A stretch of 64,000 bases of DNA from Myxococcota bacterium. Its GTDB lineage: Bacteria > Myxococcota_A > UBA9160 > UBA6930. The notes below the pieces were generated by a model that made no database searches, was not told the DNA's origin, and worked only from the letters and a program-made list of their open reading frames with translations. The stretch covers positions 1,888,001 to 1,952,000 of the forward strand of contig OZ245002.1 in NCBI GenBank assembly GCA_965223415.1. Direction: 5' to 3'. A program made the translations under genes and the position numbers. Below are positions 7,082 to 45,622 of the stretch, piece by piece (the stretch's first letter is position 1; each line of letters starts with the position of its first letter).

Positions 7082-7801
7082 ATGTTTCAGATCGTTACCG
7101 AGGCCACACGCGAGTCTCTCACCTGGGGTGAGGTAGCGGCCGTTGTGATCCCAGTCCTCACGTTCGGCTGGGCTGTACTCGCGTTTGTTCTGCAGTCTCG
7201 GCAGAAACGATCAGAGGCTGCTCTTCGACGCGAACACGATGAAGCGGATGCGATCATGCTTCGGAAACAGGAGTTGGCCGAAGCGGAGCTTGAAAGGCTG
7301 CGCCAGGTCCTCCATGAACGCGCAGTATTGGACATGAGTCTCGAGGTCGTTCAGGAAGAGGGCACTCCTCAATCGCGCTACGTAGTGAACGTCGAGTGCG
7401 TTCTGACGAACCGTGGAAGCAGGCCAGCGCATCTCCTGTTTCCAGAGAGGATGGGTCTACGGACGTTCGAGATCCGCTTCGACGAAGAAGGAAGGGCTAG
7501 GCGCGTTCGGGAGTACTTCTCGGTGTCGGAGGATGTGGAAGGCCGGGAATTCGGCGGTACGGCCGTCGTTCCTGGCGAGACGCAGCGACTGCCGTTCTTG
7601 GTCTCAGTCGAGAAGCCAGGGTTCTACCTGCTTGTCTTCGCGACGGAACTCAAACAGGTTGACAGGCACGAGCTCATCGAGACCGCGGATGTCGACAGCA
7701 CCAAGCCGATGTCCTGGATCGTCAGCCGATACGTCCAGATTCGGGCATCGGTTAGTCGCGCGTCGCGCGTCCTGCGAGTGTCCGACTTGTCGGGTGAGTG
7801 A
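7082..7801 (+). CDS. Hypothetical protein with N-terminal TM and coiled coil; atypical codon usage
   Basis: Open frame with many A/T-ending codons, unlike neighbours. Confidence 0.6.
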   Translation: MFQIVTEATRESLTWGEVAAVVIPVLTFGWAVLAFVLQSRQKRSEAALRREHDEADAIMLRKQELAEAELERLRQVLHERAVLDMSLEVVQEEGTPQSRYVVNVECVLTNRGSRPAHLLFPERMGLRTFEIRFDEEGRARRVREYFSVSEDVEGREFGGTAVVPGETQRLPFLVSVEKPGFYLLVFATELKQVDRHELIETADVDSTKPMSWIVSRYVQIRASVSRASRVLRVSDLSGE

Positions 7802-41639: not shown

Positions 41640-43349
41640 CTAGAGGGGCTCCGTGAAGGGGGCGTCCTCCCACAGGAGCTGCAGGAAGGTCCCGATGAAG
41701 AAGGCCATGAAGCTCATCAGCAGGACGGCGGTGGGGAAGGCGTAGAGGGGCCCCAGGCCCAGCACCCGAGGCAGCTCGCCGACGAAGGGGGTGAGGGTGT
41801 GGGCGAGGACCTCGATGGGGGTTCCACCCAGGTCCGGGCCCCAGTTGCGGGCCGCCATCAGCGGGCCGAGCAGGCTCGTCACCATCAGGCCGAAGCCGGC
41901 GGATTCGACGATGCCGAGCAGGAAGATCGCCCGAGCCCGCGCGAAGGCCTCCGGCGGGTCCCCCAACCGGCGCTGCACCTCGACGTAGATGTAGAGCAGC
42001 GTCGTCGTGCCGAGCAGAGCGATGGTCGAGAGGATGTAGACGGGAGACTGCTGGGCGAGGTCCCAGACCTCGTCGATCAGGAAGACGGGCAGGTAGCCGA
42101 CGATGATGCCGGCGCCGATGCGGGGCACCGAAGCGTGGAAGAGGGTGAGGTCCTTGCGCCACATGAAGCGGTAGGCGAGGAACCAGAGCGCTGCGAGCAG
42201 CACGATCGCGACCTCAGCCGACACGAGCACGTCGAACACCCGCGGCCAACGGGTGTAGGCGAAGATGCTCGCCACGAACGGCAGCGCCGGCAGCGCCAGC
42301 GCCAGGGCGTAGTTGCGCGGGCGGTGGCGGGAGAGCACCCGCTCGCCGTCCTCGTCGCCGCGCCGCAGGGCGTCGGCGTGGTAGAGCATGGCCGCCGCGT
42401 GATGGATATCGTACTGGCGCAGGAACCAGTGCTCGAGGCGCTTCAGGATGCGCTGGCTGTCCCGCCCCTGCCGTCGCAGGAAGGGCGTGAGGTCGCGGCC
42501 GCGATCGAGCTCGCGGGCGCCGCCCTGGCTGATCGCCAGGAGCACCTCGGTCTCGCGATCCTCGAAGGGAGAGGCGGTGCTCTCGAAGGCCCGGTTGTCC
42601 TCGTCGAGACAGACCTCGTCCAGCCAGCGGGTGAACGCTCGCTCGGCCGCGCCCACCAGCTGCGGATCGATCTCGTCGGCCTGGCCGGAGGCCAGGGCGT
42701 AGAAGAAGGACGTGTCGTAGGGGTCGGCGGAGCGGGTGGGATCCGCCGTTCCGGCGCGGTAGCTCTCCAGGAACCCGGGCCGGACCCGGGCCTCCATCAC
42801 GGTGAGGAGCGAGCGCCAGACGAGCTTGCGCCAGTGGAAGCGGGCGAGGCGCAGCCGCGGGTGATCCACCAGGGCCTTGTCGTGGATGAAGCGCAGCACG
42901 ACCTGCCCGAACACGGCCACGTCCTCGCTCGCTCGAAGGAGCGGCGCCGAGCTCTCGCCCTCCCCGAGTCGCTCGAGGAGTGCCGCCAGGCTGGCGGGCA
43001 GGACGGCGAGGAGCTGCAGCACCAGCTCTTCGGCGTCGCGCTTGCCCGCCCGACTCCCGAGCAGCCCGGGCTGGGACCACAGGTCTTCGAGCCGCAGGTA
43101 GAGCTCGGCCGGATCGTGGCGATCGGCGTGGAACGAGAAGGTCTCGGGAAAGACGTTGCCGAAGCCGTCGCCCGTATCGCGCTCGAAGCGAACCTCCCGC
43201 GCATGGAACGCGTAGGTGCAGCGATACACCGTCCGCAGCCGCTCGATCCGGAACTCGAGGCGCGGGATGGCGGGGCGAGGGGGGCTCGCCGAGCCGCTCG
43301 GCACCTCGTCGGAGGGCGAATTGCTTCGGGTTCGCTCCGGTTCGCTCAA
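41640..43349 (-). CDS. Hypothetical protein: soluble N-terminal domain and about 6 C-terminal TM helices
   Basis: Typical codon usage; TTG start overlaps the upstream stop; hydrophobic C-terminus. Confidence 0.7.
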   Translation of the reverse strand: MSEPERTRSNSPSDEVPSGSASPPRPAIPRLEFRIERLRTVYRCTYAFHAREVRFERDTGDGFGNVFPETFSFHADRHDPAELYLRLEDLWSQPGLLGSRAGKRDAEELVLQLLAVLPASLAALLERLGEGESSAPLLRASEDVAVFGQVVLRFIHDKALVDHPRLRLARFHWRKLVWRSLLTVMEARVRPGFLESYRAGTADPTRSADPYDTSFFYALASGQADEIDPQLVGAAERAFTRWLDEVCLDEDNRAFESTASPFEDRETEVLLAISQGGARELDRGRDLTPFLRRQGRDSQRILKRLEHWFLRQYDIHHAAAMLYHADALRRGDEDGERVLSRHRPRNYALALALPALPFVASIFAYTRWPRVFDVLVSAEVAIVLLAALWFLAYRFMWRKDLTLFHASVPRIGAGIIVGYLPVFLIDEVWDLAQQSPVYILSTIALLGTTTLLYIYVEVQRRLGDPPEAFARARAIFLLGIVESAGFGLMVTSLLGPLMAARNWGPDLGGTPIEVLAHTLTPFVGELPRVLGLGPLYAFPTAVLLMSFMAFFIGTFLQLLWEDAPFTEPL

Positions 43350-44488
43350 AGGACGGGCTGCTTCGGGTTCTCTCCGGTCTCGTAGTAGGCCTCCACGCGC
43401 TGGGCGAGCTCGCGCACGCGGACCGGAAGACGATCGGGGCTCGGCCAGCGAGAGGTAGCGACGCGCATCCGATCCACGAGCGGCTGCGCCTCCGGGAAGT
43501 CCTCCCTGGCGAGGGAATCGTCGACGGCCAGCCAGTACTCGATGGCGGTGAGGGTGCGCGAGGTGCGCTCGACGAGCTCGCTCATGCCGGGGGAGGCCAC
43601 CCCGGTGCCCTTCACCTGCTCCGCCAGCTGGCCGAGATCCTGGCGCGCCTGGGCTAGCGGCGCGCGCAGCTCTCCGTCGGTTCCGGCGAGGCACTCGATG
43701 ATCTCCTCGAAGCGCCGCTTCAGGGGCTCGTGCGAGATCTCGCGGCCGAGGATCACCTGGCCGAGCTCGCGGCCGTCGGGACTGAGCAGCGGATGCATCG
43801 CGACGCGCAGCTTGACGCCGTCGCCGCTCGGCAGGTCCACCTCCTCGTAGCTCACGTCCTCGTCCTGACGGATGCGGATGGCCGCCCCGCCGATCTTCTG
43901 GAGCGCCTCGGCGCCGAGCACGTCGTCCAGGGCCCGCCCGCGCGGATCGCCCGCGATCGCGAGGTACTCCCGGGCCGGCGCGTTCACCGCGCGTACGACG
44001 CCGTGAGCGTCCACCGCGAGGGCGCCGGTATCGAGCTGATCCATCACCGCCTGCAGGAAGGCGTTCGAATCGCGCAGGTCGCTGACCAGCCGCTCGTTCT
44101 CCTCGGCGAGCGCGTGGTGCTCCACCGCGCGCCGCACCACCTGCTTGAGGTCGTCGGGCTCCCAGGGCTTCGTGATGTAGGCGTAGACGTGGCCGTCGTT
44201 GATCGCGCGGATGATCGCGTCCATGTCCGCGAAGCCGGTGAGGATGATCCGCACCGTGGTCGGATGCCGCTCGAAGACCTTGGCCAGGAACTCGACCCCG
44301 GTCATCTCGGGCATGCGCTGGTCGGAGATGACGGCGGCGACGCCGCCCCCCTGCTCGAGCATCTCCAGTGCCTTCACCGCCGACGTGCTGGTGAGGACGT
44401 CGTAGTCCTCCTCGAAGGTGAAGCTCATCGTCTCGAGGATGGCCTCTTCGTCGTCGACGATGAGGATGCGAGCACGGTCGGTTTGCAT
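43346..44488 (-). CDS. Response regulator receiver + PAS-like domain protein
   Basis: ILIVDDE, ISDQRMPEMTG, AINDGHVYAYITKPW; PAS-like GALAVD..G..VN. Confidence 0.85.
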   Translation of the reverse strand: MQTDRARILIVDDEEAILETMSFTFEEDYDVLTSTSAVKALEMLEQGGGVAAVISDQRMPEMTGVEFLAKVFERHPTTVRIILTGFADMDAIIRAINDGHVYAYITKPWEPDDLKQVVRRAVEHHALAEENERLVSDLRDSNAFLQAVMDQLDTGALAVDAHGVVRAVNAPAREYLAIAGDPRGRALDDVLGAEALQKIGGAAIRIRQDEDVSYEEVDLPSGDGVKLRVAMHPLLSPDGRELGQVILGREISHEPLKRRFEEIIECLAGTDGELRAPLAQARQDLGQLAEQVKGTGVASPGMSELVERTSRTLTAIEYWLAVDDSLAREDFPEAQPLVDRMRVATSRWPSPDRLPVRVRELAQRVEAYYETGENPKQPVL

Positions 44489-44517
44489 CGCGGGGGGAGG
44501 GTAGCTGCCCTGATGGG

Positions 44518-45072
44518 AGGCCGCTTCGCTCCTCGGTGCGCGATCGCGGGGCGGCGGGTGGGCCCCGCGCGGAATGGCTCGGCCGGGGCGCCGGGGCCGC
44601 GTTGGGGCTCGCATGGAGGGGTCGCCGCTCTCGGCTTCGCCGGCGGCGACCTGTGTGCACGGCGGATGGTGTGCCTGCCTGCGCTTGATTTCCGCGCGGG
44701 GCCCACCCGCCGCCCCGCGGTCGGCTCGGGGTTTCGCGCCCCGGGGAATCGTCGCCGCCGCTTTCGGTTGGGGGGTGGGGGCAGCTCGAACGTCGGCGCC
44801 GGCTCCACCCCTTCTCTTCTCGAGCTGCGGGACGGATCGGCGTCCGTCCCCCAGGAGCCGCGGTTCGCCGGCTCCGGGCGCAGGTCGGGCGGAAGTACAG
44901 CGCAGGCAGGCACGACGACCGCCGTGCGCTCAGGTTGCCGCCGGCCGAAGGCCGGAAGCGGCGACCCCTCCATGCGAGCCCCAACGCGGCCTCAGCGCCC
45001 CGGCCGAGCCATGGAGCCCGACCTGCGCCCGGAGCCGGCGGCTCGAAGCCCGCAGAAGAAGCGAAGCGGCCT
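44518..45072. repeat. Composite nested inverted-repeat element (MITE/REPIN-like or structured ncRNA pair)
   Basis: 13 bp terminal IR; two ~120 nt inverted homologous cores (44574-44694, 44889-45012), each closed by its own stem of 34 or 25 bp. Confidence 0.8.
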
Positions 45073-45622
45073 AAGCCCCCCGCTTCTTCTTCGCCCGGGC
45101 CTCCCGCTCCTGGATCTTCCCCCGCAGCTCCTTCCGCTTTGCTTCGAGACGGGGGGCCAGGCGTGCCTTGGCGGTGTCGGTCCAGAAGCGCTGCTCGGAG
45201 CCCTCGCGGAAAGCCTTGAACTTGCGGTAGCCCCAGAGCTCGTGCTCGAGATCCTCTTCGACGAACTTGATCATGATCGCGTCGTCGAGGAAGCCGACCA
45301 GCGGGACGTCGTCGGGGATCACGTCGCGCGGGTTGTCGAAGTAGGCGAGGGCGGCGACAGCACGGCTGACGACGCTCTTCGGCGCCTTGTACTGCAGGTC
45401 GTTCACCATCTGCATCAGGTCTTCGAGCGAGGTGATGGCGTCGCTCACGAAGGTCGGGACCTTCTTGGTCTCCCGCACCTCCCGGATCAGCTTCCGCACA
45501 CCCCGGGAGATCTTCGGCCAGTCCTCGGCATCGGCGTTGCGCTTGGCCGCCCGGTAGATGGACTCGAAGTAGGCGGTATCCGACTCGTCCAGGGTGAACG
45601 AGATCCTCATCTTCCGGGCCAT
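45071..45622 (-). CDS. YkvA/DUF1232 family protein
   Basis: AALAYFDNPRDVIPDDVPLVGFLDDA. Confidence 0.82.
   Translation of the reverse strand: MARKMRISFTLDESDTAYFESIYRAAKRNADAEDWPKISRGVRKLIREVRETKKVPTFVSDAITSLEDLMQMVNDLQYKAPKSVVSRAVAALAYFDNPRDVIPDDVPLVGFLDDAIMIKFVEEDLEHELWGYRKFKAFREGSEQRFWTDTAKARLAPRLEAKRKELRGKIQEREARAKKKRGA

Follow-up and report, generated by a model that had tools for sequence, protein, structure and literature searches.

Bacterial miniature inverted-repeat transposable elements (MITEs), such as Correia/NEMIS, ERIC, RUP, bcr1, and Nezha, are gene-less elements of 100 to 600 bp with terminal inverted repeats. Other palindrome-associated elements derive from IS200/IS605 insertion sequences (ISs), IS1397 inserts in the apexes of repetitive extragenic palindromic (REP) hairpins, and the IS110 family targets palindromic repeats. 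Di Nocera, De Gregorio & Rocco (2013, PMC3733652) describe REP dimers as heterodimeric, with a structured spacer and a position <20 bp from both stops of convergent open reading frames (ORFs); in their account, one end of a REP is marked by a GTAG or CGTC tag that is conserved and unpaired. Here, we report a palindromic element of 555 nt at positions 44518 to 45072 of a 64,000-nt stretch (the window; assembly GCA_965223415.1, contig OZ245002.1, positions 1,888,001 to 1,952,000) from a Myxococcota bacterium. With a probability of roughly 0.6, we interpret it as one copy of a genus-restricted, non-coding, non-autonomous family of composite palindromic intergenic repeats, which resembles REPs and bacterial interspersed mosaic elements (BIMEs) or MITEs but is much larger.

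The window's own genome (G000; 5.83 Mb, 71% GC, one contig) was compared with five congeners (G001 to G005). A preliminary description of the element, made from the window's letters, had proposed a BLASTN search for further copies of the core that its two halves share. With the 121-nt core as the query, blastn returned 10 copies of at least 76 nt (76 to 100% identity) at 8 loci in G000, and nhmmer with a hidden Markov model (HMM) of the whole unit found 9 full-length units plus partial ones. When degraded copies are included, the family occupies 13 loci in G000, defined by 23 true copies of its terminal box. Two inverted boxes, 110 to 550 bp apart, bound 11 of the 13; the remaining two are a solo unit and a remnant. 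Decay by internal deletion is evident at the 1737k, 2008k, and 715k loci and in part of the 3316k locus (loci are named by their approximate position in G000).

Among the relatives searched (n = 41), 13 had some match at an E value of ≤0.001. Full-length cores were confined to the genus of the window, where they occurred in 4/5 congeners, compared with 0/35 of the other relatives searched; beyond the genus, matches were fragments of 24 to 60 nt only. Core matches numbered 3 in G001, 19 in G002, 22 in G003, 15 in G004, and 0 in G005, and exact 15-nt boxes numbered 2, 100, 37, 24, and 3 in the same order (reversed control: 0, 0, 0, 0, and 1), so copy number varies about 50-fold among congeners. 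Nearly all box copies in G002 lie <200 nt from contig ends, which shows that the repeat is what breaks the G002 assembly. One G002 locus (C130, 6900 to 7500; L182) carries three tandem 33-nt units (GGTTGTGGGGTGCCGCTTCGCTTCTTGTACGGC) at about 7136 to 7235, with the box inside and no hairpin unit, and similar box doublets at 34-nt spacing occur on two further G002 contigs.

Wider distribution was scanned with an exact two-motif pattern in one genome per GTDB species. This gave 47 loci, 43 of them from records titled “MAG: Deltaproteobacteria bacterium”; the four loci from other taxa were rejected as chance occurrences (unrelated sequence, no HMM match). JGI metagenomes yielded 7 pattern loci, of which 4 were true members, each at about 70% GC, and 3 were chance. 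The pattern scan of viral contigs gave 0 matches, and blastn against plasmids returned none. Contigs from four sources that carry the stretch break inside the repeat and offer no alternative allele.

Each unit of the family is about 210 nt long and comprises, in order, a 15-nt box (GGCCGCTTCGCTyCT), some 14 nt of variable linker, the 5' arm of a closing stem (25 to 34 bp), the motif (GGA/TCC)ATGGCTCGGCC, a core of about 120 nt, the motif TGCCTGCGCTTnAyTTCC, and the 3' arm. The contents of the core are these two junction motifs (ATGGCTCGGCC and TGCCTGCGCTTnAyTTCC), which are conserved in sequence and not in pairing, and one conserved extended hairpin (P3). Units fall into two types by the start of the arm, GAGTCGCCGG in type 1 and GGATCGCGGGGCGG in type 2; the type-2 core is either near that of type 1 (2a) or diverged (2b). 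A composite consists of one type-1 and one type-2 unit placed tail to tail with the boxes outward, and the outward boxes act as its terminal inverted repeats. The spacer between the units is either about 20 nt or 140 to 180 nt long, and long spacers contain a hairpin (GGGTGGAG...CTCCACCC) plus a GGACGGAyGCCGATCC motif. The 842k and 476k composites of G000 align to the window element across its full length. Copies differ by 1- to 2-nt indels, and a Pfam search of the two long ORFs that cross the element returned zero matches; together, these observations indicate that the element is non-coding.

In the window, unit A is read on the forward strand. Its box (AGGCCGCTTCGCTCCT; 44518 to 44533) is followed by the 5' arm of the closing stem (44541 to 44574; type 2, GATCGCGGGGCGGCGGG..., an arm type also present in the 842k and 476k composites), the core (44575 to 44689; junction motifs ATGGCTCGGCC and TGCCTGCGCTTGATTTCC, P3 at 44618 to 44651; copies found by blastn and nhmmer), and the 3' arm (44690 to 44723). 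Unit B lies on the reverse strand, with its box at 45057 to 45072, the 5' arm of its closing stem at 45016 to 45040, a type-1 core at 44891 to 45015 (P3 at 44933 to 44966; 87% identity to core A), and the type-1 3' arm at 44866 to 44890. All four arms were located by repeat search. The spacer between the units (44724 to 44865, no strand assigned) bears the motif GGACGGATCGGCGTCCGTCC and hairpins at 44772–44785/44798–44811 and 44825–44836/44843–44854 (the latter 12 nt, 92%); by direct reading, gcagctcga/tcgagctgc lies at 44781–44789/44820–44828. Conservation of parts of this spacer extends to the 842k, 476k, and 3316k composites and to the orthologous loci of G003 and G004. In the G003 orthologue (L135), the spacer has a hairpin (GGGTGGAGCC...GCCTCCACCCC) followed by AAATTTTTT, and in G004 the hairpin is followed by AAAAAA; this hairpin is terminator-like and possibly bidirectional, and the window copy has merely a CTTCTCTTCT tract.

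Every inverted repeat listed in the preliminary description was recovered by our repeat search at the position given there. The outer repeat (44518–44533/45057–45072) is 16 nt long and 94% complementary, with the perfect 13 nt described earlier falling within it; the idea that it forms a separate clamp was not borne out, as it is the 5' terminal box carried by every unit of the family. The cores pair as 44574–44635/44951–45012 (62 nt, 94%) and 44639–44698/44886–44945 (60 nt, 82%). The closing stem of unit A (34 nt) is 97% complementary, a T.G wobble being the sole exception, and that of unit B (25 nt) is 100% complementary. The predicted free energy of unit B as RNA is −139.3 kcal/mol, and shuffled versions average −116.5 (z = −4.79; 0/200 shuffles as good), and as DNA the 555 nt fold at −257.3, against −174.8 for shuffled sequence (z = −15.65; 0/100 as good). 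Two alternative single-strand folds are available, either a separate hairpin for each unit or one long hairpin in which unit A pairs with unit B.

Unit A combines type-2 arms with a P3 of the type-2a form, and its core is 96% identical to that of unit B in the first half and 81% in the second. Judged from sequence, this mixed core looks like the product of local gene conversion between inverted neighbors, which would be the simplest explanation. The earlier proposal of a conserved core with exchangeable closing arms is therefore retained only in part: the arms do differ, and in place of free exchange we see two paralogous half-elements plus conversion.

For covariation analysis, a covariance model was built from 33 near-identical type-1 cores of G003 and G004, with the closing stem (P1), P2, and P3 supplied. 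It replaced RNAalifold on a mixed MAFFT alignment of 71 sequences, which gave only 14 pairs, because it offset the subfamilies from one another by 1 to 2 columns in the arms and in P3. The model search returned 85 matches in 80 sources (five genomes plus metagenome contigs), including unit A (44560 to 44707; 89.1 bits; E value, 1e−14) and unit B (44877 to 45026, reverse strand; 72.9 bits; E value, 1.1e−11). Pairs were counted on an alignment of 82 distinct rows. Paired cells amounted to 93.1%, compared with 82.1% after shuffling and 27.9 to 48.6% when the pairing was slid by 1 to 3 columns; 23 of the 32 pairs had changed on both sides (shuffled mean, 13.8; slid, 4 to 16), and the covariation score was 0.253 (shuffled, 0.088; slid, 0.028 to 0.052). 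The observed value was attained by 0/500 shuffles on any of the three measures, a control that overstates significance, given that model fitting shaped the alignment and that the copies share ancestry.

Double changes are concentrated in P1 (11/15 pairs) and P3 (10/12), while P2 hardly varies. P3 occurs in the compensatory forms GTTGCCC/GGGCAAC, GTCGCC/GGCGAC, GTTCGCT/AGCGAAC, GCGGC/GCCGC, GTGGC/GCCAC, and GCAGC/GCTGC, and it is in the two P3 hairpins of the window that the pairing-preserving differences between its cores, listed in the preliminary description, are located; these differences are compensatory throughout the family, which supports the structural part of the earlier proposal. RNAalifold run on each subfamily agreed on P1 and P3 only, and no other inner helix is conserved between subfamilies.

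The strand that folds is given differently by different measures. In minimum free energy (MFE) folds, the box-to-core strand has more G.U pairs (470/5475, versus 211/5156 on the opposite strand) and is the more stable strand in 52/72 units. The consensus helices have 20 G.T and 73 A.C cells on the box-to-core strand, which would favor the opposite strand, and most of these cells derive from a few inherited changes. The two tests contradict each other, and both are confounded by shared ancestry. The P3 loop reads cUUCGg on the box-to-core strand in the type-1 copies of G000 and is a GNRA loop on the opposite strand in the congeners, so its identity gives no consistent strand either. Wobble pairs are rare (20 of 2481 consensus-helix cells), which fits the maintenance of a Watson-Crick palindrome at least as well as that of an RNA helix.

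Neighboring genes of the 13 G000 loci were called with an ORF heuristic based on GC content at third codon positions. The neighbors are convergent at 6 loci, tandem at 5, and divergent at 0, with 2 loci unassigned. At these loci, the window included, boxes begin 0 to 36 nt past stop codons, sometimes overlapping the TAG. Because composites are symmetric, each box necessarily points the same way as the gene end beside it, and this co-orientation adds nothing to the case for a role as RNA.

The order of the two genes that flank the window element, a DUF1232 gene and a receiver-PAS gene, is kept in 5/5 congeners, and the composite is present between them in G000, G003, and G004. The orthologous spacer of G005 has only two degenerate boxes around about 25 nt, and those of G001 and G002 are 55 to 66 nt long with a short GGGCCG...CGGCCC hairpin; the latter may be virgin target hairpins or deletion scars. 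Of 90 congener loci fetched, 26 (including 6 duplicate rows) had both flanks mapping close together in G000. Four of these rows represent three loci occupied in both genomes. At the 11 element loci of G003 and G004 whose alignments were examined, G000 has a gap of 30 to 94 nt only. These gaps often contain another palindromic repeat (TTGCGTTAG or GGGACGTTCC type) and in one case a bare pair of box remnants. Different repeat families fill one intergenic niche in different species. Gaps of this kind stand opposite L096, L060, L057, and L056, at about 1769984–1770064, 3902092–3902164, 4749609–4749692, and 3180999–3181093 (GTTGCGTTAGGGGCC and GGGACGTTCC types). Five larger G000 gaps opposite congener elements were considered as diverged elements and rejected, as they contain small genes or other sequence.

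Copies within a genome resemble one another more than they resemble their orthologues. The core of unit B has a mean identity of 0.858 to the six other type-1 cores of G000, and its identity to the units at the orthologous locus is 0.693 (G003) and 0.670 (G004), no different from the general between-genome level of 0.68 to 0.69. At the 4578k locus, identity is 0.840 to paralogues and 0.667 to the G003 orthologue. It follows that either homogenization acts among the copies of a genome or the copies at given sites undergo repeated replacement.

Set against the described systems, the family shares with REPs, BIMEs, REPINs (REP doublets forming hairpins), and the TIR repeats of TIRYT genes, as presented in the REP-dimer treatment cited above, an extragenic palindromic nature, a position mostly between convergent or unidirectional genes, no more than about 20 bp from stops and sometimes overlapping the TAG, inverted heterodimers with structured and partly conserved spacers, a lineage-specific family sequence, and the ability to fold as separate hairpins or as one large hairpin. 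It differs in unit size (about 210 nt with a structured 120-nt core, versus 20 to 40 bp for REP units) and in copy number, which is modest in G000 (13 loci). Nor does it carry a constant GTAG or CGTC tag; the box is preceded by bases of variable sequence, mostly G or A, with TAG present only where a stop codon abuts. Unlike in REPtrons and TIRtrons, no RAYT or TIRYT gene among the 35 Y1_Tnp loci fetched is flanked by the repeats of the family.

MITEs are matched by the terminal inverted repeats (boxes of 15 to 16 nt), the strong secondary structure, the intergenic position, the absence of coding capacity, the variation of copy number and occupancy between relatives, and the deletion derivatives. 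Departures from MITEs are the lack of a visible target-site duplication, the failure to find an autonomous IS with the same terminal boxes in the genomes searched, and the more elaborate nesting of box, closing stem, and core in a heterodimer of two unit types. With IS200/IS605-derived elements and apex inserters, the family has in common the missing target duplication and a reliance on hairpin folding; at the one locus with near-empty alleles, the element sits between the halves of a GGCCG...CGGCC hairpin as an apex inserter would, a single case that is equally a possible deletion scar. IS200/IS605 elements lack true terminal inverted repeats, which the family has, and the ends of the resident TnpA are unrelated. 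An integron attC/cassette array, in which co-oriented copies with R''/R' GTTRRRY core sites would adjoin intI, was rejected because the copies stand alone, as scattered inverted pairs at 13 loci, although no search for intI was made. A scan against Rfam 15 gave 9 matches at E values of up to 10, the best at 21.2 bits (gathering threshold, 53; E value, 1.3), all of them junk matches to microRNA or long non-coding RNA families; like the preliminary description, which could not place the element, we found no Rfam family near threshold. With REP size and tag, a flanked RAYT, the duplication and autonomous partner of MITEs, and Rfam all unmatched, we place the element in none of these groups. It is a large new family of a familiar palindromic-repeat kind and not a new RNA machine.

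On our preferred reading, a selfish non-autonomous repeat, the family would have spread, now or formerly, as DNA through an enzyme encoded elsewhere that would recognize either the folded single strand or the boxes. Its structure and motifs would be kept by selection for propagation together with gene conversion between copies, and copies would survive only where promoters stay undamaged. At the window locus, the element would have been added between two genes that lie 55 to 66 nt apart in two congeners, and it is probably transcribed passively with its neighbors. Of the three origins offered in the preliminary description (non-autonomous mobile element, bidirectional RNA pair, and ribozymes of both polarities), the first fits best with a dispersed, genus-wide family whose copy number varies about 50-fold.

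Several points weigh against this reading. We infer mobility from copy number and from presence and absence. A target-site duplication was not seen at the G000 junctions or in the 11 filled/empty pairs, a weak test as no clean empty site was obtained, the G000 gaps containing other palindromes. A host function could likewise account for the persistence of copies at orthologous loci in three species and for the pattern of conservation in the 33 G003 and G004 copies, in which stems and junction motifs are >90% conserved and linker and loop segments vary. The covariation is itself qualified by the fitted alignment and related copies described above. Finally, the linked HUH or reverse transcriptase genes that had been suggested as a check were not found next to its loci: 0/35 fetched Y1_Tnp loci in the six genomes had a unit or box within about 1.5 kb, and in G000 there were 0 matches to RVT_1 and 0 to the TnpB zinc ribbon. 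The sole true IS200 TnpA carries its own unrelated hairpins (CCCCGGCAAAGCCGGGG), the 16 IS110-family matches in G000 include 0 near element loci, and the only inverted box pair 0.7 to 5 kb apart in G000 encloses pilT.

Further results of the search for a mobilizing gene concern the resident candidates. Y1_Tnp matches numbered 8 in G000 and 32 in the five congeners, and the G000 set consists of the one true IS200 TnpA and seven RAYT/TIRYT-like proteins of 228 to 395 aa. The RAYT/TIRYT-like Y1 loci are L141 to L144 and three further places in G000; of the seven proteins, the three encoded at 4075689, 5825888, and 13756 are close paralogues. The TnpA gene (5490263 to 5490616, reverse strand; Y1_Tnp E value, 1.1e−40) lies in L140 (G000, C1, 5488763 to 5492116), flanked by CTCCCCGGCAAAGCCGGGGG hairpins, and a run of about 29 C lies about 400 bp from it; the genome-wide blastn search with the element gave no match at this IS200. 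Among the IS110 matches, identical scores define groups of 5, 6, and 3 (e.g., 2539517, 4911804, 1178052, and 2072137), which points to what may be several active-looking IS110 elements. No autonomous IS with the same boxes was present in congeners among the matches listed, and the congener assemblies break at the repeat.

Less likely, but in our estimation still a serious alternative, is a family of host-serving RNAs that would be transcribed as the 3' untranslated region of the upstream gene and fold into long hairpins. As has been suggested for REPs and BIMEs, these would halt 3' exonucleases or bring transcription to an end between convergent genes, and the repeats would persist through the usefulness of each copy, whatever their first mode of spread. 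The positions of the boxes just past stops and of none of the loci between divergent genes, the persistence in G000, G003, and G004, the >90% conservation of stems and junction motifs beside variable linkers and loops, the spacer hairpin with a T run in the G003 orthologue, and the excess of MFE G.U pairs on the box-to-core strand are all as such RNAs would have them. Opposed to this, the orientation of the box after the stop follows from the symmetry of the composite, and the consensus helices, with G.T rare and A.C commoner on the box-to-core strand, are unlike an RNA helix and contradict the strand suggested by MFE. G001, G002, and G005 manage without the element at the orthologous locus, and perfect duplexes of 25 to 34 bp are, to our knowledge, unusual in stable bacterial RNAs.

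More improbable still would be a new type of mobile module, protein-less and moving as a single folded strand, in which the two sequence-conserved motifs at the base of the closing stem serve as recognition and cleavage sites of an unlinked recombinase and insertion occurs at the apexes of GC-rich, terminator-type hairpins (GGCCG/CGGCC) directly behind stops. The recombinase could be one of the seven RAYT/TIRYT-like Y1 proteins or an IS110-family enzyme, with putative cleavage sites next to ATGGCTCGG or GCGCTTnAyTTCC. Apex integration, if true, would explain the absent target duplication, the gene-end position, and the box, whose outer five bases could come from the target; apex insertion is represented by the single locus with near-empty alleles mentioned above.

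We give very little credence to paired independent small-RNA genes or self-cleaving ribozymes of both polarities. Conserved structure with compensatory changes and the cUUCGg loop of the type-1 copies of G000 are what such RNAs might display, but the congener loops are of GNRA form when the opposite strand is read, the subfamilies have no more than the closing stem and P3 in common and differ in the remaining fold, the best Rfam match is far below its gathering threshold, and a search of 44300 to 45300 for sigma-70-like promoters found 0. Selfish repeats typically show such 50-fold copy variation and decay products. An isolated inverted duplication of local origin and without wider significance, suggested by the mutual closeness of the window cores over their first 62 nt, is refuted by the ten core copies in G000, the 85 covariance-model matches, and the covariation itself.

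As a non-autonomous repeat, the family offers a clean, well-delimited case of palindromic repeats colonizing and turning over the space behind genes in a GC-rich genome. With its large unit, compensatory structure, and concerted evolution, and with no linked transposase found, it lends itself to asking how REP-like elements can spread when no enzyme is encoded in cis and whether they act as RNA. For annotation, it accounts for many contig breaks in the congeners and yields spurious long ORFs across the element.

The flanking genes named in the preliminary description (ykvA and receiver-PAS) were borne out by Pfam. The element takes up the gap between them. To its right, the DUF1232 (YkvA-like) gene (45071 to 45622, reverse strand; PF06803; E value, 3.7e−9; orthologues in 5/5 congeners) has its TAG stop (45071 to 45073) overlapped by the right terminal box. 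To its left, the response regulator receiver and PAS gene (43346 to 44488, reverse strand; from its translation, Response_reg E value, 6e−20; PAS_4 E value, 4.2e−6) has its ATG at 44486 to 44488, 29 nt away from the left box. Elsewhere in G000, at four places (C1, 242226, 425136, 4963204, and 5487724), a chance 11-mer resembling the box stands in shared flanking sequence, identical over 100 nt or more; these places represent a multi-copy gene, possibly an IS. The leader of about 30 nt before the receiver ATG (44489 to 44517 in the window; GCTACCCT...CCGATG) is kept in 6/6 genomes, whether the element is present or absent.

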